Shown here: piece by piece, positions 26,760 through 43,274 of the stretch
How positions within the stretch are numbered: position 1 is the first letter of the stretch
Layout: the number at the start of each line of letters is the position of its first letter
Program-made: the position numbers and the translations under genes
Source: an uncultured candidate division Zixibacteria bacterium
Lineage (GTDB): Bacteria > Zixibacteria > MSB-5A5 > RBG-16-43-9
DNA: 64,000 bases
Reading direction: 5' to 3'
Assembly (NCBI GenBank): GCA_963713865.1
Contig: OY970208.1
Coordinates: forward strand, 1,696,001-1,760,000
Notes under the pieces: model-generated
Told to the model about the DNA's origin: nothing
The model's input: only the letters and a program-made list of their open reading frames with translations
Databases searched by the model: none

Positions 26760-28022
26760 ATGAGAAAGGGAAGTGTTATTACAAAAAACGACTCAATCAC
26801 GGTATTGCCTATTCTTCCCCGAACCCTCTGGGAACTGGTAAAGCTGTCCCAGCAAAAGGAACCTGATTTAAAAAGATTGAAAGCATTACTTCTTGAGGAT
26901 GTTGGCCTGTGCGCCAAAGCATTGAACGAGATCAATTCAATCGAAAATCTAAAAGAGCCAGTTAAATCTTTTAACCAAGCATTGGAAACCATAGACTTTG
27001 AACATTTTTTGATCAAAGGCTTAAGCTCACCTCTTTATGATCTTAAGAATTCAGAAGAGACAGCCTGGCATACTAAATTTAACCAGCGGTCAGTTATATC
27101 TGCTTTAGCCTGTAAATTTATCGGGGAGGAGATTGCCTATCCGGATCTGGAGGAACTCTATCTCTGTGGTCTATTGCATGATGTTGGGATTCTTTTTTTA
27201 AAAGAAGGATTTCCAGAAGAATACTCACTGGTGCTTGAAAGAAATAATAAAGGGGCGAAGCTTTCCCAGATCGAAAGGGAGATTTTAGCCACAGACCATC
27301 TGGAGGCAGGAGAAGGAGTAATTGCGGAATGGGGTTTTCCCAGGAATTTGATAAAATCGATTACAGGTCACGAAAACAATGCGAAGGGAAATTACGAGTC
27401 GGCAGAGCTTGTGGCCGGAATAGTAAGTGTGGCTGAACAGATAACTGAAATTATTTTTGTCGAGACAGAGCCTCATGCTTTGGAAGATTTAACAAAATAC
27501 TGGGGTAAAATTATAAATTTACCATCTGAGTTTTTTAACCGCGTCTATGCAAAGCTTTCTGAAGAAATAAGCAGAGAAGCTAACCATTATCAAAAACTGC
27601 CCGAGGACCTGTATGAGGTGATTCTGCAAGCTCACCGGCTGATCAACAGATTGGTTCAAAACTGCGAGGAGAGAACCAGGAACAAATTCAGGGAGATTTA
27701 CAGAGAAAATGAGGAGGAGAGAAAGAAGGCTGAGCTGGAATCTCTAAAGATTATTTTAGCCACTTTTTCACATTACATCAATAACGCTACCACCTCGATA
27801 ATGGGGAAATCTCAGCTTATCGATATAGCTATAAGAAGAGGGGATATCAAAGATGAGAATGGTAAGATCACCTCTTCCATGAAGATAATCCAGCAGGGGG
27901 TGGAGAATATCACCGCAGTTTTAAATGGGCTTAAAAGGCTTGATTCCTTTCGTACGGTAAGATACCACGAGCATTCCAACATCATCGATATCCGGGATAA
28001 AATCGAAATCAAAGGCTTATAA
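26760..28022 (+). CDS. HDOD-domain protein with C-terminal DHp (HisKA-like) module and no ATPase domain
   Basis: LPILP, GLLHDVG, DH..G...WGFP..I.GH (HDOD); C-terminal ATFSHYINNATTSIMGKSQL...RY...IIDI. Confidence 0.8.
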   Translation: MRKGSVITKNDSITVLPILPRTLWELVKLSQQKEPDLKRLKALLLEDVGLCAKALNEINSIENLKEPVKSFNQALETIDFEHFLIKGLSSPLYDLKNSEETAWHTKFNQRSVISALACKFIGEEIAYPDLEELYLCGLLHDVGILFLKEGFPEEYSLVLERNNKGAKLSQIEREILATDHLEAGEGVIAEWGFPRNLIKSITGHENNAKGNYESAELVAGIVSVAEQITEIIFVETEPHALEDLTKYWGKIINLPSEFFNRVYAKLSEEISREANHYQKLPEDLYEVILQAHRLINRLVQNCEERTRNKFREIYRENEEERKKAELESLKIILATFSHYINNATTSIMGKSQLIDIAIRRGDIKDENGKITSSMKIIQQGVENITAVLNGLKRLDSFRTVRYHEHSNIIDIRDKIEIKGL

Positions 28023-28216: not shown

Positions 28217-31200
28217 ATGAAGTTAAAAAATTGGGAAAAGATAACCGGGGGTAGAGCAGGGCTGATAATGATATGTGCTCTTGCGGTCTTGAGCTTAATA
28301 CTTATCTTAGAGCACATTTTGAATCTGGGTCAACTTCTCGGAGGCTCCAATAAGTTTAATATGATATGGGGTGAGCTAATCATCGACTTGGTTTCAATCT
28401 TCTCCATAGGCATTATCTCCCTGTCTTTAGTTCGCGCAGCTGAATCGAAACGAAGTAAAACCGAGCGGACTCTTTCCTATAGCGAAGAGCGTTACAAAGA
28501 GCTGTTTGAAAATTCGCCTCTGGGTATCTACCGTACCACTCCTGACGGACAGATTCTCCTGGCAAACTCTGCTCTGATTCATATGTTAGGGTATTCCTCT
28601 TTTAAGGAACTGGCAAAACGAAACCTGGAAAAGGAAGGGTTTGAGCCAGACTATCCGCGTAGTCAATTCAAGGAGATAATGGAAAAGGAGGGTGAAGTCA
28701 AGGGTTTGGAATCAGCCTGGTTAAGGCGTGATAGAACAGCGACTTTCGTTTGTGAAAATGCTAAGGCAATTAGAGATGAAAAGGGCAAAATCCTGTATTA
28801 TGAGGGGACAGTTGAAGATATCACGGAGAAGAAAAAGGCAGAGGAGAGACTAAAGCAATCTGAAAAGGAGTATCGGGGATTATTTGAAGGTGCTCATGAT
28901 GCTATAATTATTTTTAAACCTGAAAGGGAAATTGTTTTAGATGTAAACCAGAGAGCATGCGAGGTCTATGGATTTAATCACTCAGAGTTTATCGGGATGT
29001 CGTTGGAAAGAATTTCAAGGGATGTCCCTCGATGTAAAAGGGAAATTAAAACCGTTTTGGACAAGGGTGTTTACCATCATTTTGAAACGGTTCAGTATCG
29101 AAAAGATAGAACGGAGATGTTCCTGGAGATTAATGCATCGGTGGTGGATTTTAAAGGTCAACCAGCTATCCTGAGCATTAATCGAGACGTAACCAAGCGC
29201 CAAAAAGCAGAAGTAGCATTACGTGCTTCAGAACAAAGATATAAGCTGTTATTCGAGAAAAATCTTGCCGGTGTTTACCACACAACTTTAGATGGAAAAA
29301 TGCTGAATTGTAATGAATCCTTTGCTCGTCTTCTGGGCTATGACTCTGCAGAAGAGGTAATGACCCACCGGGCTTTGGAGTTTTATTTCAAAGACGCTGA
29401 ACGAAAAGAGTTTTTAGCACTTTTACTGAGAAAAGGGAATCTCAATGATTTTGAAATCTGCATGAGAAGAAGAGATGGGAAACCTGTCTGGATCCTGGAA
29501 AACGTCACCTTGATCAAAGATGAAAAAAGTGAACAAGTTTCCATACAGGGTACTTCCATTGATATTACCGAGCGTAAGAAAGCACAGGAGGCACTGCGTG
29601 AAAACGAAGAGCGCCTAAAATTGGTGTTGGAAGGAGCCGAGCTCGGCACTTGGGACCAAGACATGAAAACGGGAGAGGTCGTCCGCAATCGCCGTTGGGT
29701 CGAAATGCTCGGCTATACTTTGGAAGAAATCGATTCGCGTGCAGATGCATGGAAAGAGCTGATCCATCCCGATGATCTGCCAATAGTTAACAGGATAGTC
29801 GAAGACCACGAAGCCGGCCGGACGCCGTTTTTAAGGTGCGAACACCGCATGAAGACGAAATCAGGTGAGTGGAAGTGGATACTCAATTGTGGAAAAATCA
29901 TCCAGTGGGACAGCGACGGGAAACCGGTTCGGGCGACGGGTACGCACACAGACATCACCGAGCGTAAGCGGGTAGAGGAAGAATTGCGTGTTAGCGAGGA
30001 AAAACACAGATTAGTTCTTGATAATATTCCTGTTTTGATCGCGGCTATTGACCAGACAGGCAAATTTGTTCTATGGAATAGATACGCCAAAAAGATGCTT
30101 GGTTATTCGCCACAAGAGGCGATCTGGAAGATAATTCCTTTGGATATACATGAGACAAAAGCAGATGCAGATGAGGTCATTCGGGTTGCCAGCGAAAGAG
30201 GTATCTATGATAAAGAAATAAGATTCAGGTGTAAAGACAAAACTCTTATTCCAGTTCACTTGGTTGTTGTTCCAAATAAGGACTCTACAGGGAAGATTGT
30301 GGGTTTTTATGGTTTTGCGGAAGACATCACCGAGCGCAAGCGGGCGGAGACAGCATTGCGCGAAAGCGGGGAGCGGTTCCGACAGTTTGCGGAGAACATA
30401 GACCAGGTCTTTTGGCTTACGGATTGGGATGCCAAAAAGCTGCTCTACGTGAACCCTGCCTACGAGAGGTTGTACGGCCGTTCCTGTCAGAGTGCGTATG
30501 AAGACAGGAAGAGCTGGCAAGATGTCATCCACCCTGAGGATCGGACCCGGATCTCGGAATCCTTCGCCCGGAGTGCAGACTTAGGCCAGTACGTAGAGGC
30601 AGAGTACCGGATCTTGCGTGATGACGGCACGCTGCGCTGGGTTTTAGATCGCAACTATCCGATCCGGGACAAATACGGGAGAATCTACCGTTTCGCAAGC
30701 GTAGCCGATGACATCACCGAACGTAAGAAAGCAGAGGATGCGCTGAAAGAGTCCGAGGAAAAGTATAGGGCGATAATCGAAGCGGTAGGGAGGGCAGGTG
30801 AGGGAATCATCATCATTCAAGATAACGAACAAGGAGAAGCAGCGTTTGTTTTTGTGAACGACCAGTTTTGCCAGATGTCGGACTATTCGCAGGAAGAGCT
30901 GATGGGCAGGTCACCCTGGGATTTTGTTCCCCATGAAGTCTCAGTTCGGCTTAAAGACTGGTATAAGCGAAGACATACGGGAGAGTCTCTCCCTGGTCAC
31001 TACGAGGCAGCGGGAATTCGTAAAGATGGTGCAATCGTGCCTTTAGATCTTAGTATAGTTACTATGCCATGGCAAGGGAATATAGCGACGGTGCTTTATT
31101 TAAGGGACATCACCGAACGCAAGAAAGCAGAGGAGGCACTGCGCGAGAGCGAGGAAAAACATCGAACATACGTCGAAAACGCTCCGGACGGCATTTTCAT

Positions 31201-33391
31201 TGTCGATTCCGAAGCCAGGTACGTCGACGTCAACGAGGCGGCATGCCGCATGACCGGTTATTCCAGGGATAAGTTACTGAATATGACCATTATGCAGCTC
31301 GCCCCTTCGGATACACCGCCCGAAGTATTCGAAACCTTCGAGAAACTCAAGAGAAACGGCAAGACAAGCTCTGGAATCGTCATTCAGCGAAAGGATGGCT
31401 CCGTTATTCATGCCTCACTCGACGCAGTTGCCCTATCGGATGGACGGTATATGGCATTCTGTTCCGATGTAACCAGGCGCAAGAAGGCTGAAGAGGCGCT
31501 TAAAACAAGCCAAGCCCAACTATCCAATGCAGTGAAGATCGCTAAACTGGGGTATTGGGAATATGACGTGGTAAAAGACCTGTTTACGTTCGACGATCAT
31601 TTTTACGCCATCTTCCGCACGACAGCAGAAAAAGTAGGTGGCTATAAAATGTCATCTGCTCGTTACGCTGAGCTTTTTGTTCATCCTGACGACCGGCCTT
31701 TAGTCGGCATAGAGATTCGTAAAGCCCTTGAGACTAATGATCCCCACTTCAGCCGTCAACTGGAACACCGCATTATCTATGCAGACGGCGAGATCGGTTA
31801 CATAACCGTCCGTTTTTTCATCATCAAAGATGACAAGGGAAAAACGATAAAAACCTATGGCGCAAATCAGGACATAACCGAACGCAAGAGGGCAGAGGAG
31901 GAGTTGAGAGAATCCGAACAAAAGTATAGAGGGGTAGTGGATAATATCGGGATTGGGGTATCGCTTATCAGCCCGAAGATGGAAATACTATTCTTGAACA
32001 AGCAGATGAAGATATGGTTTTCGAATGTGGATATTTCAAAAGAAGCCGTTTGCTACAGAGCTTTTAATAATCCACCCAGAGAAGAGATATGTTCCTATTG
32101 CCCGACCTGTAAGACGTTAAATGACGGGCAAGTCCATGAATCGGTAACAGATATTCCGACTGGAGAAAGAATTGTCAACTATAGATTAATTTCATCTCCG
32201 ATCAAAGATATGGATGGAAAAGTTATATCAGCCATAGAAATGGTGGAAGACATCACTGAAAGGAAAAAGCTTCAAGAACAGTTGATCCAAACAGAAAAAT
32301 TAGCCGCAGTAGGAACCTTAGCTTACGGGATTGCCCACGAGTTCAACAATATCTTAGCTGGCATGCTGGCAAATGCGGAGTTGGGTCTGGTCACGGACGA
32401 GCCCCGGCAGATCAAGGAGTGTTTTGAGATCATAGCGGATAATTCTCATCGAGCCGCAAGCATTACCAACAATCTTTTAGCCTTTGCCCGGCAGAAAGAG
32501 GCGAGAAAAGAGTTAATCGATATAACCGAGCCTTTGAGAAGCGTTTTAGCAGTAACCCGGCGTGACTTAGAGAAGCTCAACATAGAGATCGAGGAGAAAG
32601 TCAAACCTATCCCTAAGATTTACTGTGATGCCGGACAACTATCCGAGGTTTTCTTGAATATGGTCACCAATGCCCGGGATGCTATGCATCCTAAAGGAGG
32701 AACTCTGACAATTCAGGTTGAACCGGACCAGGATAATATCCGGATCATCTTCAAAGATACTGGTTGTGGGATACCGGAGGAGATAAGGGGAAAAATCTTC
32801 GAGCCTTTTGTAACCACCAAGGGAGTATTAGGTGGAAGTGAGGTTCCTGGAACAGGCTTAGGGCTTTTCCTCACCTACGGGATAATAAACGGTTATCAGG
32901 GAAAGATTGAGGTGGAATCAAAAGTGGGTAAAGGAACACAGTTTATTATATCAATCCCTGTTTCCAAAAACCTGCCTCCCCAACCTGTTCAGGAAATTAA
33001 GAATGAACCTTTCGGGGAGATTGAGAGGAAATTGAAAATCCTGTTAGTGGATAATGAGGAAACGATAGTTTCCGGTTTAAAGAAGTTTTTAGAATCCAGG
33101 GGGCATCAGGTAACCTCCTCTTTACGAGGGAAAAAGGGGTTAAGACTTTTCAAAAAAGATAAGTTCGATTTAGTTTTATCTGACATTACCATGCCGGATA
33201 TGGATGGGATAGAGCTGATTAAAAAGATTAGAGAGCAGGATCAGGAGATCAAGATCATAGTGATAACCGGACATATAATGCAAGTAAAAGAGAATGAAGC
33301 CTGGAAAGCCGGGGCTGATGAATTTTTAATCAAGCCGTTTAAAAATGAAGTGCTGTGTTTGGCTATATCAAAATTGATGACGGAAATTTGA
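28217..33391 (+). CDS. Membrane-anchored hybrid histidine kinase: 2 TM, 10 PAS/PAC, HisKA, HATPase, receiver
   Basis: Ten S/N-E-x-x...D(I/V)T-x-R/K-K units; AHEFNNIL, NMVTNARDAM, DTGCGI, FEPFVTTK, GTGLGL; receiver LSDITMP...KPF. Confidence 0.93.
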   Translation: MKLKNWEKITGGRAGLIMICALAVLSLILILEHILNLGQLLGGSNKFNMIWGELIIDLVSIFSIGIISLSLVRAAESKRSKTERTLSYSEERYKELFENSPLGIYRTTPDGQILLANSALIHMLGYSSFKELAKRNLEKEGFEPDYPRSQFKEIMEKEGEVKGLESAWLRRDRTATFVCENAKAIRDEKGKILYYEGTVEDITEKKKAEERLKQSEKEYRGLFEGAHDAIIIFKPEREIVLDVNQRACEVYGFNHSEFIGMSLERISRDVPRCKREIKTVLDKGVYHHFETVQYRKDRTEMFLEINASVVDFKGQPAILSINRDVTKRQKAEVALRASEQRYKLLFEKNLAGVYHTTLDGKMLNCNESFARLLGYDSAEEVMTHRALEFYFKDAERKEFLALLLRKGNLNDFEICMRRRDGKPVWILENVTLIKDEKSEQVSIQGTSIDITERKKAQEALRENEERLKLVLEGAELGTWDQDMKTGEVVRNRRWVEMLGYTLEEIDSRADAWKELIHPDDLPIVNRIVEDHEAGRTPFLRCEHRMKTKSGEWKWILNCGKIIQWDSDGKPVRATGTHTDITERKRVEEELRVSEEKHRLVLDNIPVLIAAIDQTGKFVLWNRYAKKMLGYSPQEAIWKIIPLDIHETKADADEVIRVASERGIYDKEIRFRCKDKTLIPVHLVVVPNKDSTGKIVGFYGFAEDITERKRAETALRESGERFRQFAENIDQVFWLTDWDAKKLLYVNPAYERLYGRSCQSAYEDRKSWQDVIHPEDRTRISESFARSADLGQYVEAEYRILRDDGTLRWVLDRNYPIRDKYGRIYRFASVADDITERKKAEDALKESEEKYRAIIEAVGRAGEGIIIIQDNEQGEAAFVFVNDQFCQMSDYSQEELMGRSPWDFVPHEVSVRLKDWYKRRHTGESLPGHYEAAGIRKDGAIVPLDLSIVTMPWQGNIATVLYLRDITERKKAEEALRESEEKHRTYVENAPDGIFIVDSEARYVDVNEAACRMTGYSRDKLLNMTIMQLAPSDTPPEVFETFEKLKRNGKTSSGIVIQRKDGSVIHASLDAVALSDGRYMAFCSDVTRRKKAEEALKTSQAQLSNAVKIAKLGYWEYDVVKDLFTFDDHFYAIFRTTAEKVGGYKMSSARYAELFVHPDDRPLVGIEIRKALETNDPHFSRQLEHRIIYADGEIGYITVRFFIIKDDKGKTIKTYGANQDITERKRAEEELRESEQKYRGVVDNIGIGVSLISPKMEILFLNKQMKIWFSNVDISKEAVCYRAFNNPPREEICSYCPTCKTLNDGQVHESVTDIPTGERIVNYRLISSPIKDMDGKVISAIEMVEDITERKKLQEQLIQTEKLAAVGTLAYGIAHEFNNILAGMLANAELGLVTDEPRQIKECFEIIADNSHRAASITNNLLAFARQKEARKELIDITEPLRSVLAVTRRDLEKLNIEIEEKVKPIPKIYCDAGQLSEVFLNMVTNARDAMHPKGGTLTIQVEPDQDNIRIIFKDTGCGIPEEIRGKIFEPFVTTKGVLGGSEVPGTGLGLFLTYGIINGYQGKIEVESKVGKGTQFIISIPVSKNLPPQPVQEIKNEPFGEIERKLKILLVDNEETIVSGLKKFLESRGHQVTSSLRGKKGLRLFKKDKFDLVLSDITMPDMDGIELIKKIREQDQEIKIIVITGHIMQVKENEAWKAGADEFLIKPFKNEVLCLAISKLMTEI

Positions 33392-33891: not shown

Positions 33892-35235
33892 ATGGTTTCT
33901 GTCTTAATTGTTGAAGATGAAGATTCTCTGAGGAAAGCTTTATCTCAGCTACTGCTTAATAAAGGATATGAAGTTACTGAGGTAAGTGACGGGAATGAAG
34001 CTTTTTCCATCCTGGAAAAGAAAAATTTTGACCTGGTAATAACTGATCTCAGGATGAAAATAGTCTCCGGAGAAGAGGTTTTAAAAAAGGTAAAAGAAAT
34101 CTCACCTGCAACTGAGGTAATTATCATAACAGCTTATGGGACAATTCAATCAGCCGTTGCTGCTATGAAAGCAGGGGCTTTTGATTATATCACAAAACCC
34201 TTCAAGGTGGAAGAGATACTGAGCATTCTGGATAAAACCATTGAAAAGAAAAAGATTTTTGAAGGGATTAAGTTTGAAACAAAAGAAGGAGATTATTCTT
34301 TTACAGAAATAATATATGTTTCCAAAATAATGGATGATATAATCCAGCTTATCAAGAAGATAGCTCCCACAGATATAACGATTTTAATCGAGGGTGAATC
34401 CGGAACCGGCAAAGAGCTTTTAGCCCGGGTGATTCATAAAAATAGCTTGCGCAAAAATGAAGCTTTTGTAACAGTAAACAGCAATCTTCCTGAAACCCTT
34501 TTGGAAAGCGAGCTTTTTGGATATGTCAAAGGGGCATTCACCGGTGCTTTTTCCGATAAAAGAGGACTCTTTGAAATAGCTAATTCCGGGTCTGTATTTC
34601 TGGATGAGGTCTCTGATACCAGTCCTGCTCTGCAGACGAGGTTGTTAAGAGCTATTCAGGAAAAAGAGATCAGAAGAGTAGGAGGGGAAGAATTCATCAA
34701 AGTGGATGTCAGGTTAATAACAGCTTCTAATAGAAATCTATCGACTTTAGTTAAAGAAAGAAAATTCAGAGACGACTTATATTATCGAATAAATGTTATG
34801 CCTATCTATCTCCCTCCTTTAAGAGAGCGGACAGAAGATATAGTTCCCTTAGCCAAACATTTTATAAAAAAATATGCTGAGTCTTATCAGAAAGAGGTTG
34901 AGGAAATAGATGAGGAGTTGAAGGATGAGTTTCAGAATTACCACTGGCCTGGAAATATAAGGGAATTAGAACATACTATTGAACGGGGAGTTGCCCTGGC
35001 CACTTCTTCTATTCTGGATAAAACTTCCATACTCTTTCTTCCAGAAGACGAAAAACACTGGTTACCTGAGATTGAAAGCGAGACTCTCAATTCCCTCAAA
35101 AACAATGAAAAAGCTCAGATTATTAAAACTTTAAAAGAGAATAAGTGGAATTATTCCAAATCAGCTGAAGAGTTAGGGATAAGCCGAACAACACTCTGGA
35201 GAAGAATGAAGGAATATGGATTAAAAGAAGAATAA
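33892..35235 (+). CDS. Sigma54-dependent response regulator (REC-AAA+-Fis HTH, NtrC/AtoC family)
   Basis: ITDLRM receiver, GESGTGKE, ESELFGYVKGAFTGA, FLDEV, WPGNIREL, AEELGISRTTLWRRM. Confidence 0.95.
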   Translation: MVSVLIVEDEDSLRKALSQLLLNKGYEVTEVSDGNEAFSILEKKNFDLVITDLRMKIVSGEEVLKKVKEISPATEVIIITAYGTIQSAVAAMKAGAFDYITKPFKVEEILSILDKTIEKKKIFEGIKFETKEGDYSFTEIIYVSKIMDDIIQLIKKIAPTDITILIEGESGTGKELLARVIHKNSLRKNEAFVTVNSNLPETLLESELFGYVKGAFTGAFSDKRGLFEIANSGSVFLDEVSDTSPALQTRLLRAIQEKEIRRVGGEEFIKVDVRLITASNRNLSTLVKERKFRDDLYYRINVMPIYLPPLRERTEDIVPLAKHFIKKYAESYQKEVEEIDEELKDEFQNYHWPGNIRELEHTIERGVALATSSILDKTSILFLPEDEKHWLPEIESETLNSLKNNEKAQIIKTLKENKWNYSKSAEELGISRTTLWRRMKEYGLKEE

Positions 35236-35251
35236 TAATTGAACCAGTTGG

Positions 35252-35387
35252 TTTCAAATTGAAAGTCGGTATTTCAAAGTGAAACATTTAACAGTCCTAC
35301 ATCTAATATAGGCACTCCCGTAAGTTATTGTTAATCAATAAGTTATAATTTATCCTTCAAGATTATCTGGTTGGGCATTCTATTTGC
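35252..35387 (+). promoter_or_regulatory. Sigma54 promoter with tandem enhancer palindromes and IHF site
   Basis: TTTCA-N3-TGAAA at 35252 and 35272 (20-bp spacing); WATCAA-N4-TTR exact match at 35333-35345; GG-N10-GC (GGGCATTCTATTTGCT) at 35374-35387. Confidence 0.75.
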
Positions 35388-35492
35388 TTTAATAATTTCT
35401 AATATATTTTTTCCAATACTGACTGGTTCTGACACAGGGCGTCTTAGATTTGAATTTGAGAGGAGTATTATATATAAGAGAAAGGACATCGG

Positions 35493-36527
35493 ATGTCCAA
35501 ATATGCTCGACTCCTACAGGTTTTAAATCTATTGAAAAGCAGACCTGGGATTTCAGCTAAGGATTTAGCACTGGATTGTCAGGTATCCAGAAGAACAATT
35601 TTCCGGGATATTCTCTCCCTCTGTTCCGCAGAAATACCAGTTTTTTACGACAAGGGTTATCGGCTCCTTCCAGGAACATTTCTACCTACTTTAAACTTCG
35701 ATCTGGATGAATATCTGACCCTGAAAAGTATCTTATCCGCAGATCTGTTCAAGAATAAAAACTTTCTGGGCAATACCATACTGAGTGTCCTCTCGAAGAT
35801 TGAAATAAATTTAAATTCTGATTTAAAAGAGAAATTGAAGGAGATCTGTATTCCTTTACACTTTTCATTCCAGACAAGCAACGGGGATAAGGACCGAGCT
35901 TTTATATTCAAGATTTTGAAAGAAGCCGTCCTGGAGAAAAGAAGCATTATTTTGAATTACGGAATTCGGGACTTATTCAAATCCGATTTCAAAGTTGATC
36001 CGGTCAGTTTGGCTCTCAAGCAACAGCGGTGGTATCTTGTAGGAAACTGCAGAAATTACAATGTTTATTTCCCTTTCAGTCTGGATTACATTAATAGAGT
36101 TACTTTAACCAATAGCAATTTTAGTCTGACAAAGGATTTTTCACTGAACGACTTTTTTGAGAAGAGCCTGGGTGTATGCCAAACAAAGTTAATCGAGGTG
36201 GAGCTGCAACTTCTCAAAGAGAATAAATATTTTTTAGATAATATTTCAAATCTGATTATAGATCTCTCAAAACATAAAGATGGCTCAATTTCGTGCAGAT
36301 TGAAAGTGAAAGGAGTAAATGAGCTTGCCAGATGGCTTTTAGGTTTTTCAGGCGAGGTGAAAGTGATAAGCCCGTCTGAACTGAAAGAAAGATTGCTCAA
36401 GCTTTTAGATAATCAAATGAGAATTTATCAGAAAAGAAACAAAGTGAGAAAATGGGTTCCGGTTTGTTCTTTTTATGAGAAGTACAAGTTGCTATGCAGT
36501 GATCTCTGCCTGGATCCGGTGTTTTAA
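35493..36527 (+). CDS. HTH-WYL-WCX transcriptional regulator (YafY/PafC-like) with a Cys-rich C-terminal tail
   Basis: LALDCQVSRRTIFRDI wHTH, GYRL, VDPVSL...RWYLVG, LARWLLGFSGEVKVISP. Confidence 0.9.
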   Translation: MSKYARLLQVLNLLKSRPGISAKDLALDCQVSRRTIFRDILSLCSAEIPVFYDKGYRLLPGTFLPTLNFDLDEYLTLKSILSADLFKNKNFLGNTILSVLSKIEINLNSDLKEKLKEICIPLHFSFQTSNGDKDRAFIFKILKEAVLEKRSIILNYGIRDLFKSDFKVDPVSLALKQQRWYLVGNCRNYNVYFPFSLDYINRVTLTNSNFSLTKDFSLNDFFEKSLGVCQTKLIEVELQLLKENKYFLDNISNLIIDLSKHKDGSISCRLKVKGVNELARWLLGFSGEVKVISPSELKERLLKLLDNQMRIYQKRNKVRKWVPVCSFYEKYKLLCSDLCLDPVF

Positions 36528-36651
36528 ATAGTTTAAAAATATTTTAAACTTATGACAGGTTCTGACATATTGAATTTCGATAAACTTAACAGGGAAATTA
36601 ATAGGGGGTACTGCATGAAACAAAACCGCGATTTACTTCTACGGGTATTAT
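36506..36651 (+). repeat. 146-bp direct repeat, copy 1 (copy 2 at 37419-37564)
   Basis: Identical over 36506-36627, one mismatch to 36651; offset 913 bp. Confidence 0.95.
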
Positions 36652-37019
36652 CAGGCAAATTATTCTCCAAATCCGGATCCACCGGAGAGGACGAGAAAAG
36701 AGAAATTGCCATCAGGGCCATCCAGAAATTGATGGCCAGCATCTCTTATTATATAGTCGATCCTCTAACTGTGGTTCAAGCAAAAGCTGAGCTTTTAGAA
36801 GAATCTCTAAAAAAGAAAAAATTAAAAGGAGAGGAGATAGAAAGTTTCATATCTTTATGTAAAGAGCAGTTCCGCAAGATAAATCTGATTTTGAACGCCT
36901 TAAGTTCTCTTTCCGAGCTCAGGTATAGAAAATATCCCTTAGGCATAGAGATAATCGATATAGAAGATAAGATCAAAAAAGATCTGAGATCAAAACTGGT
37001 CTTGCGGAAAACAGATTAA
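36615..37019 (+). CDS. Stand-alone DHp/HisKA-like protein lacking the phospho-His (copy A)
   Basis: RBS AGGGGG 7 nt before ATG 36615; ASISYYIVDPLTVVQAKAELL (H-box His replaced by Tyr); tail RYRKYPLGIEIIDI resembles the HDOD protein tail. Confidence 0.75.
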   Translation: MKQNRDLLLRVLSGKLFSKSGSTGEDEKREIAIRAIQKLMASISYYIVDPLTVVQAKAELLEESLKKKKLKGEEIESFISLCKEQFRKINLILNALSSLSELRYRKYPLGIEIIDIEDKIKKDLRSKLVLRKTD

Positions 37020-37035
37020 TGCAGATGGAACTCAA

Positions 37036-37156
37036 CAGGAAGGAAAGAGGGTAAAGGGAGTTTATCCAGAAACCGGTCTTGTCCGGGGGGCTGGGACTGG
37101 TTTCATCCTTCCCCCAAGCTGGGCTCCTAAGGGGGGGAGCCCAGCTTTCCTCTTTT
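37036..37156 (+). ncRNA. Candidate structured RNA plus terminator, copy A
   Basis: P1 ggaagga/tccttcc encloses two hairpins, followed by an aagctgggctcc/ggagcccagctt stem and pyrimidine tail; conserved in copy B. Confidence 0.5.
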
Positions 37157-37160
37157 AACT

Positions 37161-37440
37161 CTTCTGCCTAAAGATTATTCTTTAGATAATTATTTTGAGA
37201 ATAGCTGAGGGGTATGTCAAGCCAAGTTGATTAAGGTAGAGTTGAAACTTCTAAAAGAGAATAGATATATTTTAGATAATCTTTCATCTCTGGTTGAAAA
37301 TACCTCAAAATCTAAAATGGGGTAATCAGCAGAGAATCTATCAGAAAGGAAGTAGAGTGAAAAAATGGGTTCCGGTTTGTCCGCTGTACGAGGAGTTCAG
37401 ATTGTTGTGTAATGATGCCTGCCTGGATCCGGTGTTTTAA
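37161..37440 (+). pseudogene. Remnant of a paralogous WYL gene (3' part only)
   Basis: LLPKDYSLDNYFENS*GVCQAKLIKVELKLLKENRYILDN aligns to the intact WYL gene; in-frame TGA at 37206, an internal deletion with frameshift, then VKKWVPVCPLYEEFRLLCNDACLDPVF*. Confidence 0.85.
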
Positions 37441-37527
37441 ATAGTTTAAAAATATTTTAAACTTATGACAGGTTCTGACATATTGAATTTCGATAAACTT
37501 AACAGGGAAATTAATAGGGGGTACTGC

Positions 37528-37992
37528 ATGAAACAAAACCACGATTTACTTCTACGGGTATTATTAGGAAAATACTTCGAAGAAGAGAAAAAAGAAATCT
37601 CCATAGAAGTCATCGAGAAATTGATGACCACTATCTCTTATTATCTGGGAGACCCTTTAACCGTAATTCTGGGAAAAACCGAGCTGTTAGAAGAATCTCT
37701 AAAAAATAGAGATTTGCACAGGGAGGAAATAGCGGATTTCCTCTCTTTATGCAGAGATCAGCTCACCAGGATAAGCCTGGTCTTGAATACTTTACAATCT
37801 CTTAATGAGCTCAGATATAGAAACTATCCCCTGGGTATTGAGATGATCGATATAGAAGACAAAATCAAACTCGGTCAGGAGAAGAATCAGAACCCATCTG
37901 AAGTTGACCAGGATATTTTAGTTCGCAGTTCCGTTGGAGTTCCACGGAACAGGTTGAGGAAGACGGAACTCTACAGGAAGGAAAGAGGATAA
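37528..37992 (+). CDS. Stand-alone DHp/HisKA-like protein lacking the phospho-His (copy B)
   Basis: Same RBS and start context as copy A; TTISYYLGDPLTVILGKTELL; RYRNYPLGIEMIDI tail. Confidence 0.75.
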   Translation: MKQNHDLLLRVLLGKYFEEEKKEISIEVIEKLMTTISYYLGDPLTVILGKTELLEESLKNRDLHREEIADFLSLCRDQLTRISLVLNTLQSLNELRYRNYPLGIEMIDIEDKIKLGQEKNQNPSEVDQDILVRSSVGVPRNRLRKTELYRKERG

Positions 37993-38090
37993 AAGTAGTT
38001 ATCCCGAAGCCGGTCTTGTCCGGGGGGCTGGGACTGGTTTCATCCTTCCCCCAGGCTGGGCTCTTAGGGGGGAGCTCAGCCTTCCTCTTT
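37974..38090 (+). ncRNA. Candidate structured RNA plus terminator, copy B
   Basis: Same stems as 37036-37156 with pairing-preserving substitutions. Confidence 0.5.
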
Positions 38091-38125
38091 AATTCGCTGA
38101 CCTGATCATAAAGAGGTTAAAAATT

Positions 38126-38317
38126 ATGAACTGCTGGGATTTTATTAAATGTCCTCAAGAGTACCGGGAGTATTGCCTGGCTTACCCGAACTACGGTAAA
38201 ATCTGCTGGAAAGCAACTTTGGTAAGTTGTAAAACCGGTAAAATTCTTGATTCCGGAAAGAAGCTGGAAGAGTGTTTGAGGTGTGAATTTTATAAATTCA
38301 GAAAACCAAACATATAA
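38126..38317 (+). CDS. Small Cys-rich 'two-CW'-type protein (63 aa)
   Basis: RBS AGAGG; MNCWDFIKC...CLAY...ICW...C...CLRCEFY (7 Cys). Confidence 0.75.
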   Translation: MNCWDFIKCPQEYREYCLAYPNYGKICWKATLVSCKTGKILDSGKKLEECLRCEFYKFRKPNI

Positions 38318-38576
38318 ATAAAGCAAAGGGTTGAAGCAGAATAAATGAAGAAGTAAAGCTATAACTATCAGGTAGCAATGGGGTGGCACTATAAAATAAA
38401 AGTTTTTCTCCATAGAGGAAGAGGTTCTTCTTCGGGAGGGGTGGATCCCTTAAAATGAGCTACAGGATAATAAAATATCCTAAAGGTAGTTTAGAAAATA
38501 GAGCTACCTTTAAATTTTATTGCTAATGACTGATAGGCATAAAAAGTTAGGTTCCTACCATCTAAAGAGGGCTATT

Positions 38577-40700
38577 ATGAGATCAAAACATTATTTAGGT
38601 ATAGCTCTGTTGTCACTGTTAGTTTCAGGAGTAAATATTTTGTCAGCTCAAACCTCAGATGAACTTGACGATCTGATGAAGATGAGTTTGGAAGATCTCT
38701 TAAATGTTTCCGCCGTTTCTGGCGTTCGTCATGAACAGAGGATTATAGACTCCCCCAGATCGATCTCCGTTATTACCGCAGAAGAGATTAGAAAGAAAAA
38801 TTTTCGCAGCACCCCGGAAGCTTTGAACGAGCTGGTTGGTATTCTGATCCAGGAAACAAATTACGGAGGAGGATCGCCTATCATCCGGGGATTGATTGGA
38901 AATCAGATTTTAATCTTGATTGATGGGGTCAGATTAAATAATGCCATTTTCCGTCTTGGACCGAATCAATACCTAAATACCATCGATCTTAATCAAATTG
39001 AAAGGATCGAGATAGTGCGAGGACCCGGCTCAGTGCTTTATGGCAGCGATGCCTTAGGAGGTTTAATTAATATCATCACCAAGTCCAGAAAAGGCTATAG
39101 TAAAGATCTGGATATCGGCGCAAGATTTTATACTCGGTATGCCAGTGCGGATAAGGGGAAAATTGGACGTATTGACCTCAGCGGAAATATCAAGAAAATG
39201 GGTATTACGGGAGGATTTAGTTATAAAATATTTGGTGATCTGCGAGCCGGGGATGGAGTAGGGTTTCAACCCTTTACCAGTTATGATGAGTGGAATCTTG
39301 ATCTCAAAATGAATCTTGAATTATCAAAGCGACAGAATGTTTCAATCGGTTTGCAAAAGGTCGATCAATTAAATCTACCTCGAACAGATAAGCTGATATC
39401 GGGTTCAGACTTAAAACATGAATGGGATCCAGAAGGGAGGGATCTGCTCTATGCACAATATGAATTTGAAAAAATCAACTCTTTGGTTAACAAGCTTTAT
39501 GCTGGGTTCTCTTATCAAAATCAATTAGAGGATTTATATATAATTACCAGCTCTAAACCAAAGATCCAGCAAGAGCTTCACAATGAAGTCAAATCAGTTG
39601 GATTTACATTTCAACTAATTTCTGAACTGGGTAAACATCAGCTCTTAACTTATGGTGCTGAGTATTACGCGGATAATATTGAAAGTCATAGAGTAGATGT
39701 CGATATCACTACAGGTACACGCACCAACAAAAAAGGCACATTTGCTGATGGTTCAACTTACCGGTCCACCGCAGGATTTTTGCAGGATGAGATACGGTTG
39801 ATGAAATCTATATCCCTGATTATTGGGGTAAGATACAGTTGGTTTGATGCCCAGGCTACAGTTGATGATCCGCTAACCGGAGCTATCCAGGTCCATTCTA
39901 CTCCTACCGCCTTGACTACAAGTGCCAGAGCTTTGTATAAATTGACAGAGAATCTCGTTGTTACTTTTGGTGTTGGTCAGGGCTTCAGGGCTCCTAATAT
40001 CGACGACTTGTCAATTTTGGGGAGTTTCGGCAGTGGGTTCGAGGTCCCCAATCCAAATCTCGAACCGGAGCAGAACATAAATTATGAGATCGGTCTTAAG
40101 GCGCAGCATAGAAAATTTACCGGTTCCTTATATTATTTCCTCAGTAATTATAAAGACTTAATCGAGCGAGGTACCGGCACTTTTAACAACCTTCCATTTT
40201 TGGATAACAATGGCAACGGTATCCAGGATCCAGGAGAGCAGAGTGTTTTTCAAAGAAAGAACATAGTTAAAGCACGTATCCGGGGGGTTGAGGCAGAGGG
40301 ACAAATCCAGATTTTACCTGCATGGACTGTCCTGGGTAATCTTGCCTGGATTAAGGGCGATAATTTAGCTGATAATACACCACTTAGACGCATCCCGCCG
40401 ATCAAGGGGAAATTCAGCATAGAGTGGAGGTTGAAAAATAATTTATGGACGGAATACTACAATTTGTTTGCTACCAAACAGGATAGACTTGCACCAGGGG
40501 ACCTGCAAGACCCTCGTATCCCTGTGGGTGGCACACCTGGATTTTTAACCTTCAATATCCGAGGAGGGCTGGATCTCAACAGATTTGGCAATGTCACAAT
40601 TGGCTGGGAAAATATAACGGACAAAGCCTACAGACTACATGGTTCCGGTATTGATGGCCCCGGCATTAATCTTGTGGTTGGTTATGAGTTAACCTTTTAA
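38577..40700 (+). CDS. TonB-dependent receptor
   Basis: Signal peptide from ATG 38577, plug ERIEIVRGPGSVLYGSDALGG, GFRAPNI, LEPEQ, C-terminal YELTF. Confidence 0.92.
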   Translation: MRSKHYLGIALLSLLVSGVNILSAQTSDELDDLMKMSLEDLLNVSAVSGVRHEQRIIDSPRSISVITAEEIRKKNFRSTPEALNELVGILIQETNYGGGSPIIRGLIGNQILILIDGVRLNNAIFRLGPNQYLNTIDLNQIERIEIVRGPGSVLYGSDALGGLINIITKSRKGYSKDLDIGARFYTRYASADKGKIGRIDLSGNIKKMGITGGFSYKIFGDLRAGDGVGFQPFTSYDEWNLDLKMNLELSKRQNVSIGLQKVDQLNLPRTDKLISGSDLKHEWDPEGRDLLYAQYEFEKINSLVNKLYAGFSYQNQLEDLYIITSSKPKIQQELHNEVKSVGFTFQLISELGKHQLLTYGAEYYADNIESHRVDVDITTGTRTNKKGTFADGSTYRSTAGFLQDEIRLMKSISLIIGVRYSWFDAQATVDDPLTGAIQVHSTPTALTTSARALYKLTENLVVTFGVGQGFRAPNIDDLSILGSFGSGFEVPNPNLEPEQNINYEIGLKAQHRKFTGSLYYFLSNYKDLIERGTGTFNNLPFLDNNGNGIQDPGEQSVFQRKNIVKARIRGVEAEGQIQILPAWTVLGNLAWIKGDNLADNTPLRRIPPIKGKFSIEWRLKNNLWTEYYNLFATKQDRLAPGDLQDPRIPVGGTPGFLTFNIRGGLDLNRFGNVTIGWENITDKAYRLHGSGIDGPGINLVVGYELTF

Positions 40701-40768
40701 AATAAAATTTTAGGGTAGTGTTTAACTGGAATGGTTAAATAGAGATATAAATTAATATCGCTGAATCC

Positions 40769-41356
40769 ATGAAGAAATTCGGAACTCCAATTTTTAGATT
40801 GGTTTTGACTATCATTTTGACATTCTCAGGGACAGCAAGGTTTCATGCTCAGGAAATGGTGGTTCCGATCAAATTACAGTTAGCCCTTTTTTTAAAAATA
40901 TTGCCTTTTGATTGGAACCTGAAAGATAGAGTTGGTAATGAAATTGTTTTCGCTATTTTCTATCAAAATAATTTTGGGATATCTTATAATGCAAAAGAGG
41001 GATTCTTAAAAGTGGTTAAGGAATCTTCCGTAAAAGAAATCGATGGTATTCCGCTTCGCTTTGTATCGATCGATATTGAAGAGACCGATCTCGCAGAAGC
41101 CATTACAAGAGATAATGTGGATATTCTTTATATAACCCCGCTTCGCGCAATGGAAATTGAAAAGATCACTAACCTGAGTCGAGCCCAAAAAATAACGACC
41201 TTAACTGGTGTACCTGATTATGTTGAGTCAGGGCTTGCCGTTGGAGTCGGTGTTAAAGGCGAAAAACCGCTGATCATCATAAATTTAAAAGCGGCAAAAG
41301 CTGAAGGCGCTGATTTCAGTTCGCAGTTATTGAAGTTAGCAAAAGTCATCGAGTGA
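40769..41356 (+). CDS. YfiR/DUF4154-family periplasmic protein
   Basis: Signal peptide, C-terminal INLKAAKAEGADFSSQLLKLAKVI; sits between the TBDR and a kinase. Confidence 0.8.
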   Translation: MKKFGTPIFRLVLTIILTFSGTARFHAQEMVVPIKLQLALFLKILPFDWNLKDRVGNEIVFAIFYQNNFGISYNAKEGFLKVVKESSVKEIDGIPLRFVSIDIEETDLAEAITRDNVDILYITPLRAMEIEKITNLSRAQKITTLTGVPDYVESGLAVGVGVKGEKPLIIINLKAAKAEGADFSSQLLKLAKVIE

Positions 41357-42861: not shown

Positions 42862-42881
42862 AAAACTGCTTGAGGTGAAAA

Positions 42882-43274
42882 ATGAACCAGGAAAATGGAA
42901 ATAGAAATATTTTGATCGTTGACGATGAGGAGATTATGAGAAATTTCTTAGGGGAGGTTTTCTCGGAGGAGGGTTATCAATTAGATTTTGCCTGTGATGG
43001 GGATGAGGCTATTGAGAAAATAAGAAAGGTAAATTACAGGGTAATTATAACTGATATCAGGATGCCTAAAGTAGAGGGTACTGAAGTCCTGAGGGTGGCT
43101 AAAGAGATTCTACCGCAGGCTGAGGTGATTGTCATAACCGGTTATGCCTCAGAAGATGTTGCCAGGGAATGTGAAAAACTGGGGGCTTTTGCCTACTTGA
43201 CCAAACCTTTCCAAATGACTCATATAAGAGAGTTGGTGAACAAAATTGTAACTGGGCAGGTTGGGTTAAAATGA
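42882..43274 (+). CDS. Single-domain response regulator
   Basis: ILIVDDEE, ITDIRMP, ITGY, TKPF. Confidence 0.92.
   Translation: MNQENGNRNILIVDDEEIMRNFLGEVFSEEGYQLDFACDGDEAIEKIRKVNYRVIITDIRMPKVEGTEVLRVAKEILPQAEVIVITGYASEDVARECEKLGAFAYLTKPFQMTHIRELVNKIVTGQVGLK

Follow-up and report, generated by a model that had tools for sequence, protein, structure and literature searches.

The window analyzed here is a stretch of 64,000 nt of DNA, and it carries on its forward strand a module that, as judged from sequence, belongs to one family of Zixibacteria: a sigma-54 response regulator, an HTH-WYL-WCX regulator, a small DHp protein (duplicated here), and a two-CW protein. The features of the region are as follows.

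26760..28022, + strand: HDOD protein (Pfam HDOD, 107 bits) with a C-terminal CA-less DHp and tail, His kept (TFSHYINNATT)
28217..33391, + strand: multi-PAS hybrid histidine kinase, 1724 aa (HisKA, HATPase, and REC by Pfam)
33892..35235, + strand: sigma-54-dependent response regulator (REC, AAA+ with GAFTGA, Fis-type HTH; Pfam, and NCBIfam AtoC/NtrC-like), first gene of the module
35251..35285, + strand: two tandem palindromes GTTTCA-N4-TGAAA(C), at 35251-35264 and 35271-35285
35373..35388, + strand: predicted sigma-54 -24/-12 promoter, GGGCATTCTATTTGCT
35420..35434, + strand: operator-like site O1, TGACTGGTTCTGACA, 58 nt ahead of the start of the WYL gene, on the downstream side of the sigma-54 promoter
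35493..36527, + strand: HTH-WYL-WCX transcription regulator, 344 aa (Pfam)
36553..36567, + strand: operator-like site O2, TGACAGGTTCTGACA, 11 nt upstream of a conserved GATAAA box
36615..37019, + strand: small DHp copy 1, 134 aa, SYYIVDPLT, a diverged paralogue
37069..37147, + strand: two-hairpin 3' element ending in the intrinsic terminator 37116-37147
37163..37440, + strand: decayed copy of the 3' part of the WYL gene (residues ~212-344; repeat families D2 and D3, tblastn)
37466..37480, + strand: operator-like site O2', TGACAGGTTCTGACA, before small DHp copy 2
37528..37992, + strand: small DHp copy 2, 154 aa, SYYLGDPLT, orthologue of the single gene in G198 and G050
38053..38082, + strand: intrinsic terminator of copy 2
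38126..38317, + strand: Cys-rich two-CW-like ORF, 63 aa (NCBIfam NF045718), last gene of the module

The product of 35493-36527 shows the full HTH-WYL-WCX architecture, with an N-terminal HTH followed by WYL and WCX, and each domain scores above its Pfam cut-off (HTH_11, 34.2 bits; WYL, 44.4; WCX, 40.9), in agreement with the sequence-only reading of an HTH-WYL gene ahead of the small ORFs. The protein also matches PADLOC WYL models (E 2.7e-28) and, weakly, PafC and PafBC in the PDB (E 7e-4). By analogy with DriD, PafBC, BrxR, and CapW, the locus may be tied to DNA damage or phage stress. WYL orthologues of at least 61% identity are found only together with a small DHp gene.

The two small proteins had been described from the letters as HisKA-like hairpins, and both profile comparison and an AlphaFold2 model support this. 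Their own scores against Pfam HisKA (PF00512) are 18.3 and 21.5 bits, below the gathering threshold of 26.9, and their relatives P0050 to P0052 reach 28-32 bits. A profile of 29 family members matches the DHp domain of HK853 in the PDB (4jas_A, E 1.8e-7), laying "isyY" on "ISHE" of HK853 with the Tyr opposite His260. The model of the 154-aa protein (P0002) is the antiparallel two-helix hairpin expected of a DHp domain, with helices at 3-59 and 65-93 and pLDDT of 85-94 over residues 31-90, and HK853 superposes on it with an rmsd of 1.5-2.6 A over 71-87 residues (Z 7.0-7.7). Its best structural neighbors are kinase DHp domains at VIA Z 7-8.1, values that are indecisive for helical hairpins, and Foldseek found nothing in the PDB for the model at E <= 1e-3.

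The residues and domains needed for kinase chemistry are missing from these hairpins. Pfam finds no HATPase domain in either protein; both stop 8-31 residues beyond the tail and are followed by terminators, and the claim that they are ATPase-less is therefore sound. Our set of close homologues comprises 47 metagenomic proteins, 46 with the H-box and one a box-less fragment, and the phospho-His position is occupied by Tyr in 38, by Phe in 8, and by His in none. At His+4, the usual Asn/Thr has given way to Asp in 43 of 45 matched proteins, the other 2 having Asn. With the acceptor His and the His+4 Asn/Thr both lost, phosphotransfer is ruled out and phosphatase chemistry is unlikely, and the earlier statements that His has become Tyr in both proteins and that their H-box is non-phosphorylatable are upheld. 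The pair thus lacks the phosphate-shuttling His of a histidine phosphotransferase as well as the HATPase_c that follows the DHp domain of a transmitter. Tyr phosphorylation was rejected as the function of these proteins, given the Phe-bearing homologues. The best-conserved part is the tail, RYxxYPxGxEMIDIE, which is modeled with low confidence; C82 in helix 2 is invariant in alignment A1.

The longest frames of the two small ORFs run from 36552 to 37019 (155 aa) and from 37465 to 37992 (175 aa). The lengths of 134 and 154 aa given previously correspond to internal ATGs at 36615 and 37528, and we judge these to be the true starts because AGGGGG lies 6 nt upstream of them and because the 21-codon extension from the upstream ATGs (36552 and 37465) is broken by an in-frame TAG in G176 and G092. 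The two copies are 66% identical over 127 aligned codons. As the repeat alignment indicates, the pair arose when a segment including the 3' end of the WYL gene was duplicated in tandem: a unit at ~36125-37155 matches 37163-38090, with 74-93% identity depending on the segment. The WYL remnant is recovered by tblastn in two pieces, 37164-37349 (with stops) and 37321-37437, and is also found in G123. Each small gene closes with a strong hairpin terminator (37116-37147 and 38053-38082), and the two-hairpin element behind copy 1 is 93% identical to its counterpart at 37999-38072. Independent metagenome contigs from two studies span 37087-37448 and show about double depth over the repeated piece 37419-37534.

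A decayed WYL fragment between the copies, together with sub-threshold HisKA scores, raises the question of whether the small genes are simply functionless, decaying remnants of kinase genes. Their dN/dS values range from 0.03 to 0.40 in 28 pairs, and the small DHp genes are therefore real and under purifying selection. Start, stop, SD, and terminator are conserved across several genera, close homologues number 47 in metagenomes, and both copies are retained in G000 and G123. These selection and conservation data contradict decay, which is hardly credible as an explanation of the locus.

A tree of 36 rows, containing the small DHp proteins and their relatives, places the stand-alone small DHp proteins in one clade (support 95/92) that divides into a His-bearing group of 11 rows (90/96) and a His-less group of 13 rows (89/91). 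His-less members lie downstream of a WYL gene in all 8 genomes read directly and, via two contigs, in G123, so that the linkage to WYL first noticed in the window extends to every genome of this clade with a readable locus. The His-bearing sister clade has no WYL gene nearby, and most of its members whose neighbors were read adjoin a hybrid kinase of ~1060-1160 aa or a receiver protein. The objection that homologues usually keep the His is true of the sister clade and of the fused relatives but not of the WYL-linked clade. We propose, from this tree, that the ancestors of the small proteins were stand-alone phosphotransfer proteins of the CA-less DHp type, in which His was later replaced by Tyr or Phe and the Asn at His+4 was lost; the members of the His-bearing sister clade, by analogy, probably work as Spo0B/ChpT-like phosphotransferases. 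Between the two clades, the part of helix 1 below the His position is conserved far more strongly than the rest of the protein, including T at +7, G at +11, K at +12, and E at +14, although T, G, and K at such specificity positions are common in ordinary HisKA domains too.

A His-bearing relative in the window is the HDOD-DHp protein, whose C terminus had been said to resemble the tail of the small proteins. BLASTP substantiates this (30% identity to P0002 over 100 residues, E 4e-13). The genome encodes only four clear CA-less DHp-plus-tail proteins, two of them His-bearing, the second of which is a 270-aa protein (G000:C1:1828681-1829493). In G164, G176, and G123 the HDOD-DHp gene is found a short way upstream of the module, and in G000 and G050 it is ~8 kb upstream; by comparison with G164 and G176, the multi-PAS hybrid kinase at 28217..33391 is an insertion, as judged from synteny with L033 and L037. 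Such paralogy and proximity would suit a dimer poison, in which the small proteins enter mixed four-helix bundles with the HDOD-DHp or the 270-aa protein and disable or re-target a phosphotransferase, much as RetS is reported to disrupt GacS through DHp-DHp contact (PMC8498467). We regard this as unlikely, if still worth keeping in mind, since G175 has the HDOD-DHp gene but not the pair, family f2 has the pair but no HDOD-DHp gene, and 30% identity need not preserve dimer specificity. Orthologues of the HDOD-DHp gene are present in 7 of the 8 other f1 genomes, in none of 20 f3 genomes, and in none of 4 f2 genomes. By this distribution the gene is a conserved neighbor and no obligate part of the module.

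A steadier companion is the sigma-54 regulator, which stands immediately upstream of the WYL gene in 6/6 loci with enough sequence; the order regulator-WYL-DHp is seen in G000, G050, G164, G176, G123, and G068. Its receiver has D9, D52, T80, and K102 invariant in 5 orthologues. Directly after the small DHp gene, G164, G176, and G123 carry the two-CW ORF, which an in-frame TGA interrupts in G050 and G198; the copy in the window scores 33.6 bits against NF045718, under the cut-off of 35 (E 3.8e-8). A literature search under the name "two-CW domain" found nothing. In G175, EF-P comes right after the HDOD-DHp gene, with the entire regulator-WYL-DHp-two-CW block missing, and the four genes are present or absent as one insertion/deletion unit. 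The sequence-only reading had looked for a partner in the surrounding phosphorelay. The consistent companion is instead the sigma-54 response regulator, within a block present or absent as a unit, and the choice of partner changes with it; of the interpretation, a CA-less and His-less DHp paralogous to the HDOD tail and linked to WYL is retained.

The Cys-rich neighbor and the invariant Cys of helix 2 also allow a reading outside two-component signaling, with the hairpin reused as a generic four-helix-bundle dimer, for example a WYL-controlled thiol or metal sensor acting with the two-CW protein. CsoR, CstR, and FrmR bundles do appear in the structural list at Z 6.1-6.3, but chance often produces hairpin matches at Z 6. 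Such reuse is improbable: what the sequences resemble is specifically HisKA, their closest relatives carry the His and are mostly encoded next to hybrid kinases, and G092 and the f2 loci yielded no two-CW ORF.

How are the WYL gene and the small genes controlled? The element at 35373..35388 has one mismatch to TGGCAY-N5-TTGCW, in its -24 part, and 6 of 7 other loci have an exact match at the corresponding position. Genome-wide, the exact pattern occurs 15 times versus 0 for a reversed control, and the genome has rpoN. Within the window alone 4 matches were found versus 3.4 expected, which is chance level, and for this reason the promoter claim rests on cross-genome conservation. Tandem palindromes lie ~110-130 nt upstream of the promoter; both are kept in the four f1 loci of a 5-genome alignment, and the f2 locus G068 has one clear copy. 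The sigma-54 activator may use them as enhancer sites, and an 18-mer of this palindrome occurs 14 times in the genome versus 12 in the control, a count that does not discriminate. The elements expected of a sigma-54 promoter are thus all found near this predicted one: the -24/-12 element, upstream palindromes, an adjacent bEBP with GAFTGA, and rpoN.

Three sites of the form TGAC-N7-GACA occur in the 2.72-Mb genome, one before the WYL gene and one before each small gene. In its wider form the motif reads TGAC-N7-GACA/GTCA; O2 is kept in 8/8 loci, and the distance between the operator-like site and a GATAxx box is fixed at 11-12 nt in 8/8 loci. According to two reports, the DriD dimer recognizes a palindrome that has a spacer of 7 nt and overlaps the -35 element at a fixed distance from the -10 element, and one of its targets, DidA, is a small effector that blocks a cellular machine (PMC10853764, PMC13004042). 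The operator-like site of the window has the same 4+7+4 layout as the DriD site. A consensus scan yielded no sigma-70 -35/-10 promoter for the small genes; the only good + strand sigma-70 match near copy 2 is at 37242-37271, inside the WYL remnant. Rfam gives no credible family over 35200-38600 (the sole row is GHRLOS, E 0.48), and no cluster of DnaA boxes is seen where the skew switches near 16 kb.

The reading that we favor, tentatively and at somewhat less than an even chance, is that the small DHp protein is a WYL-gated pseudo-phosphotransferase that docks on the module's receiver, or on a DHp partner, without phosphotransfer. The small proteins would act as DHp dimers that dock on a receiver, the likeliest being the one in the sigma-54 regulator of the same module, and would withhold the regulator from its phosphodonor or compete with that donor. 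The regulator would activate the sigma-54 promoter of the WYL operon, and the WYL protein would bind the TGAC-N7-GACA sites before its own gene and each small gene, setting transcription of the small genes in response to a ligand. Such WYL control would create a ligand-gated feedback loop on the sigma-54 regulator. Gene identities, fold class, His loss, purifying selection, linkage, and promoter and operator motifs are observations; what binds what, whether regulation is positive or negative, and the nature of the ligand are parts that we infer. The partner is not fixed by sequence, and the HDOD-DHp tail or the 270-aa CA-less DHp protein could be a heterodimer partner.

Docking need not be inhibitory. 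A small protein could read a phosphorylated receiver, in the manner of DivL, and stabilize that state or relay it to the WYL or two-CW protein, a positive or reverse adaptor that fits with the joint travel of the four module genes and with a strongly conserved tail and helix 2 Cys (C82), suggestive of a second interface. DivL is reported to sense DivK~P (PMC4211667). Phe for Tyr in 8 of 46 homologues means that the Tyr is not essential, and the small proteins have no sensor or output domain with which to pass on a signal; we hold such an adaptor to be distinctly unlikely. If the favored reading, that of a docking pseudo-phosphotransferase, is extended, the module might be a two-component connector, in which WYL switches on a dominant-negative His-less DHp that plugs the receiver of the sigma-54 activator or poisons its phosphodonor, thereby feeding an intracellular nucleic-acid or metabolite signal into a phosphorelay. 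Behind it would stand an unrecognized minimal family of DHp-plus-tail proteins without even a pseudo-ATPase. This extension is possible but doubtful.

Several known systems share single traits with the module. DivL of Caulobacter, a histidine pseudokinase, has a Tyr at the phospho-His position. It is reported to have a HisKA-type DHp and to work by binding a receiver protein without phosphotransfer, and its structure 4q20 is among the weak profile and fold matches of the small DHp proteins. Unlike them, DivL is large and membrane anchored and has PAS and CA domains; it is not linked to WYL and lacks both the tail motif and Phe variants. Replication stress induces Sda, a small helical hairpin. 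Sda and KipI of Bacillus, like the RetS-GacS pair, exemplify two-component inhibition by binding at the DHp region, as proposed here, but Sda and KipI have no homology to the small DHp proteins, are not DHp derived, and have no WYL regulator, while RetS is a full hybrid kinase. Spo0B and ChpT are four-helix-bundle DHp proteins without kinase activity that stand between phosphorelay receivers (PMC3433190); they keep the His and a CA-like domain, neither of which the small proteins have, a distinction drawn from descriptions rather than sequences. RedE of Myxococcus is a kinase homologue without autophosphorylation that modulates a receiver, but it retains both His-24 and a HATPase domain, takes phosphate from RedD, and has phosphatase activity (PMC2755868); the HATPase domain rules it out as a CA-less precedent. 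DriD-DidA and PafBC share with the window an HTH-WYL-WCX regulator and a site before its own gene. The WYL protein of the window is only distantly related to DriD and PafBC (PafC, E 7e-4), and it differs in having a predicted sigma-54 promoter and, as its proposed target, a kinase-derived hairpin.

Titles and the beginnings of abstracts contained no description of a WYL regulator paired with a DHp-only protein. As far as sequence comparison reaches, what is new is a one-family insertion/deletion module with a conserved sigma-54 promoter, a three-site, DriD-like putative operator, and a His-keeping, WYL-less sister clade. Pseudokinases and anti-kinases indicate that two-component systems are wired by binding as well as by phosphotransfer, but few natural minimal examples are known. 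The locus offers a DHp of ~100 residues that has no catalytic residues and yet is under purifying selection, and, paired with its His-keeping sister clade, it allows a natural comparison of DHp roles with and without chemistry. If the docking model is true, WYL regulators reach beyond DNA-damage and defense genes to phosphorelay control. The host organisms are uncultured and the family is narrow, with 27 representative clusters among 1.84 billion proteins, which limits how far the case extends; the control region, a sigma-54 promoter and a predicted three-site WYL regulon, is defined and could be rebuilt in a laboratory host. A database search with a homologue of P0002 returned its own Zixibacteria cluster and small proteins named HisKA, which serve as leads only.

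The small DHp proteins encoded beside the WYL gene are catalytically empty, conserved and duplicated. They belong to a module whose other members are a sigma-54 response regulator, the WYL regulator and a Cys-rich ORF, and the genome that holds the window (G000:C1:1696001-1760000) is a single contig of 2.72 Mb. Close protein matches and related contigs bear names of candidate division Zixibacteria. The features are as follows.

26760-28022: HDOD protein with a C-terminal, CA-less DHp domain and tail, His kept (HDOD-DHp)
33892-35235: sigma-54 response regulator
35373-35388: sigma-54 -24/-12 element, starting GGGCAT in the window version
35420-35434: operator-like motif TGAC[AT]GGTTCTGACA, after the sigma-54 promoter
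35493-36527: HTH-WYL-WCX regulator, 344 aa, with HTH_11, WYL and WCX each above the Pfam cut-off; PafC and PafBC are its sole PDB relatives by sequence (E of about 7e-4)
36553-36567: operator-like motif before small DHp copy 1
36615-37019: small DHp copy 1 (P0001), 134 aa; longest frame opens at 36552
37050-37160, +: 3' element behind copy 1
37466-37480: operator-like motif before small DHp copy 2
37528-37992: small DHp copy 2 (P0002), 154 aa; longest frame opens at 37465
37990-38090, +: 3' element behind copy 2
38126-38317, +: two-CW-like ORF, 63 aa, Cys-rich, after the small DHp genes
L008 2099-2287 and L007 2099-2272: two-CW ORFs at two loci in relatives

The longest frames of the small genes carry a 21-codon N-terminal extension; in two related genomes this extension is broken by an in-frame TAG. 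The internal ATGs are preceded by AGGGGG. The genes therefore start at 36615 and 37528, the upstream starts are rejected, and the lengths of 134 and 154 aa proposed from the sequence alone are borne out. Each small gene is closed by a strong hairpin terminator, the second of two hairpins in a 3' element that is 93% identical between the copies, versus 75% for the coding regions (fold z-score, -1.97); an Rfam search with this element returned no matching family.

Pfam HisKA scores P0001 and P0002 at 18.3 and 21.5 bits, under its threshold of 26.9, and a family profile of 29 sequences matches the DHp domain of Thermotoga HK853 with an E value of 1.8e-7. In this profile alignment the phospho-acceptor His of ISHELRTPLT falls on the first Tyr of SYY, and the tail matches the linker between DHp and CA and, beyond it, the opening strand of CA. 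An AlphaFold2 model, built from the family alignment with P0002 as first sequence, consists of a helix (residues 3-59), a short loop and a second helix (65-93), with pLDDT of 85 to 94 across residues 31-90 and low confidence in residues 94-108 (tail) and 122-154 (C-terminal extension); the tail, poorly modelled, is the most conserved segment of the small proteins. Foldseek with this model gave no match at E ≤ 1e-3, its top ranks being HK853, PhoR and other DHp domains. VIA-align gives Z of 7.0 to 8.1 against the DHp domains of LvrB, HK853, EnvZ, DesK and PhoR (rmsd of 1.5 to 2.6 Å and 24 to 28% identity for HK853), but unrelated helical hairpins reach similar scores, so structure by itself is not decisive. 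We consider it improbable that the hairpin has been turned to a role apart from two-component signalling, perhaps as a bundle working with the two-CW protein and an invariant Cys; the HK853 profile match argues against this. No HATPase domain was found by Pfam in either protein, and in a whole-genome census with the family HMM the chain ends 8 and 31 residues past the tail in P0001 and P0002, against at least 142 further residues in ordinary kinases. The sequence-only reading of both proteins as DHp hairpins lacking an ATPase, for which it had suggested an AlphaFold check, is upheld by the profile match, the modelled hairpin and the Pfam result; at the level of sequence all of its observations are correct.

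A word-indexed search yielded 47 homologues of 73 to 235 aa, each at least 59% identical, of which 23 were aligned and all were scanned by script. The phospho-His position is occupied by Tyr in 38 and Phe in 8 of the 46 proteins that carry the box and by His in none (the 47th is a fragment). Working HisKA domains have Asn or Thr at His+4; four positions past the box residue, the proteins matched by script have Asp (43/45) or Asn (2/45). An exhaustive search of 1.84 billion representatives returned just 27 proteins at E ≤ 1e-3. The 24 inspected include more His-less small proteins (P0048, P0049, P0053 and P0054), small proteins retaining His in ISHYLSNPLT (P0050-P0052), one full kinase (P0063), and longer relatives with the DHp-plus-tail module at the chain end behind REC, HDOD, GAF-PAS or REC-GAF, nearly all with His and without a HATPase domain.

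The family profile was also run against 201 genomes of the phylum. Strong small-ORF matches occur in 6 of 7 other genomes of the window's own family (f1) and in 2 of 4 and 7 of 10 genomes of two further Zixibacteria families (f2 and f3), and weaker matches elsewhere in the phylum are to proteins of 250 to 500 aa. Scanning 185,579 species with a pattern seed found 14 loci, all on contigs that sequence overlap or title assigns to Zixibacteria. Wherever upstream DNA is readable, the His-less gene follows a WYL gene (G000, which is the window genome, G050, G198, G176, G164, G092, G062 and G068), and G123 has the same order joined across two contigs; the proposed WYL-Tyr-DHp neighbourhood is thus conserved. 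WYL orthologues of at least 61% identity are confined to f1 and always stand beside a small gene, and the remaining WYL matches in the order are paralogues of 26 to 40% identity. No WYL gene lies near a His-bearing small DHp gene in the neighbourhoods read; most of these genes adjoin a hybrid kinase (~1060 to 1160 aa), a receiver or a REC-DHp protein, and His-keeping relatives lie mostly beside hybrid kinases, where a phosphotransfer protein is needed. Those of f3 (L011-L017, L038, L039 and L045-L052) are 145 to 205 aa long with the box ISHYLNSPLT, and most with neighbours read are next to a large HAMP-PAS-GAF-HisKA-HATPase-REC kinase, a receiver or a REC-DHp protein.

In a tree of 36 chosen rows and 114 columns, stand-alone small DHp proteins form one clade (support, 95/92) that divides into 11 His-bearing rows (90/96) and 13 His-less rows (89/91). 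This topology, with moderate support, fits a single loss of the His that coincided with WYL association. That homologues usually keep the His, named earlier as an outcome against the decoy idea, holds for the sister clade and the fused relatives and fails for the WYL-linked clade (0/46).

The family tail reads approximately [RK]Y..Y..G..MIDIE, and CA-less DHp proteins bearing it (P0055-P0072; 1828681-1829493; 26760-28022) mostly keep the His. The window genome has two such His-bearing members, G000:C1:1828681-1829493 and HDOD-DHp. The terminal 100 residues of HDOD-DHp (box, TFSHYINNATT) are 30% identical to P0002 (E of 4e-13), and the tail likeness read by eye is real. Members of this wider family, which lack so much as a pseudo-ATPase domain, may represent minimal phosphotransfer proteins. 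Given this likeness, the small proteins might poison HDOD-DHp or the 270-aa CA-less DHp protein at 1828681-1829493 by heterodimerization, which we think unlikely. HDOD-DHp is only a frequent neighbour of the module, since it is kept without the module in G175 (f1) and its orthologue was found in 0 of 4 f2 genomes searched.

Gene order defines the unit. In G164 and G176 it runs heptosyltransferase, MBL, PHP, HDOD-DHp, sigma-54 regulator, WYL, small DHp, two-CW ORF and EF-P, and G000 and G050 have extra kinase genes ahead of the regulator and a TonB-receptor block ahead of EF-P. In G175, EF-P directly follows HDOD-DHp and all four module genes are absent; in G068 (f2) the order is regulator, WYL, DHp and EF-P. 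The joint absence in G175 and the presence without HDOD-DHp in G068 indicate that regulator, WYL and DHp genes, with or without the two-CW ORF, form the unit. The two-CW-like ORF is intact in G164, G176 and G123, and has TGA at the Cys17 codon in G050 and at the Trp28 codon in G198, which could mean pseudogenes or recoding; a literature search for 'two-CW domain' found no paper.

The small genes are under selection and their duplication is real. Over 28 orthologue and paralogue pairs dN/dS (Nei-Gojobori) is 0.03 to 0.40, and 0.27 between P0001 and P0002, contradicting the very improbable view that they are dead remnants. The lone gene in G198 (88% identity) and G050 (84%) is orthologous to copy 2, and copy 1 is a diverged paralogue on a long branch, 62 to 72% identical to every other; its orthologues vary (A, V, G or L) at His+11, which we take to be a specificity position. 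At the DNA level, 36125-37155 recurs as 37163-38090, with 74 to 75% identity in WYL-derived and coding parts and 89 to 93% in the 5' control region and 3' hairpins. The second unit opens with a decayed WYL fragment equivalent to the final third of the gene (tblastn, 37164-37349 and 37321-37437, with stops in the first). Unitigs from runs of two studies, one of which may be the window's own source, span 37087-37448, a junction that an unduplicated locus would not have, and depth on the shared piece 37419-37534 is ~2-fold that of the flanks (21.9 versus about 11; 38 versus about 17 to 23). G123, of another genus, also has two copies and a WYL remnant, with a break at the repeat that leaves the arrangement on two contigs. 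In the window, the stretch that comprises control region and first codons is near-identical (36521-36640 versus 37434-37553) ahead of genes that are 75% identical, a pattern pointing to gene conversion or to operator and leader being strongly constrained.

Predicted control elements tie the small DHp genes to the WYL regulator and, via a sigma-54 promoter, to the co-travelling response regulator. An exact TGGCAT-N5-TTGC[AT] lies upstream of the WYL gene in 6 of 7 other loci; the genome has 15 such sites, versus 0 for the reversed control, and encodes rpoN. Two palindromes, GTTTCA-N4-TGAAA(C), lie 20 nt apart about 110 to 130 nt upstream of the sigma-54 element; the pair is kept in four f1 loci of a five-genome alignment, and the f2 locus in G068 has one clear copy. 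In the regulator the receiver is intact (D9, D52, T80 and K102) and GAFTGA is present; most simply, this protein would activate the WYL operon. The operator-like motif, allowing at most one mismatch, has just three matches genome-wide, all at the WYL locus. It precedes the small gene in 8/8 loci, forms a fully symmetrical palindrome in G062 (TGACAG-GTT-CTGTCA), and stands constantly 11 to 12 nt from a GATAAA, GATAAG, GATACT or GATATT box. DriD is the best-studied WYL activator. It is reported to bind ATACGAC-N7-GTCGTAT as a dimer, at sites overlapping a missing -35 element with fixed spacing from the -10, to have a small effector protein among its targets, and to bind the promoter of its own gene as well (PMC10853764, PMC13004042). 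This similar layout supports, and does not prove, the motif as a candidate operator of the WYL protein, with each small gene under its own WYL-dependent promoter.

Conservation between the His-bearing and His-less branches is highest in helix 1 below the His position. Among receivers, the one that most consistently accompanies the small gene in the genome belongs to the sigma-54 regulator of the module. We tentatively favour a pseudo-phosphotransferase that docks on this receiver in a WYL-gated feedback. The ancestor may have been a minimal DHp phosphotransferase, and the WYL-linked branch would have become a pseudo-phosphotransferase still docking on a receiver. By docking and not transferring phosphate, the small protein would compete with the true phosphodonor of the sigma-54 regulator. 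As this regulator is the probable activator of the WYL operon, the competition would feed back onto it, subject to the signal that the WYL domain detects. A positive or reverse-signalling adaptor resembling DivL, itself a DHp-derived pseudokinase, appears rather doubtful. The stress link proposed from the sequence may hold by analogy, drawn solely from other WYL proteins.

WYL regulators, sigma-54 activators, DHp phosphotransferases (Spo0B and ChpT) and anti-kinases (Sda, KipI and RetS) are, like DivL, known kinds. A stand-alone, CA-less and His-less DHp as dedicated WYL target inside a sigma-54 regulator module is apparently undescribed, as is the wider DHp-plus-tail family without any ATPase-like domain; our search of literature other than subscription journals found no description of either.

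Several further observations concern the surroundings. GC skew and gene orientation change sign near 16 kb of the window, where DnaA-box-like words do not cluster. Compared with G164 and G176, the window has a 1724-aa multi-PAS hybrid kinase (28217-33391) between HDOD-DHp and the regulator. A block absent from both genomes (38520-45314; TonB receptor, YfiR-like gene, 502-aa ORF, two small ORFs and 560-aa ORF, the first two genes checked with Pfam) is flanked by the two-CW ORF on one side and by a 185-aa ORF (45594-46151) on the other; synteny with G050 makes the latter a probable EF-P gene. Beyond the window, a second WYL paralogue (G000:C1:1553922-1554897) is seemingly split over two adjacent frames, corresponding to residues 1-157 and 162-322, with stops in the second. 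In G068 (L035 3199-6465), two genes lie ahead of the module, namely another WYL gene (317 aa) and a member of the AIPR family, which is often tied to abortive infection.
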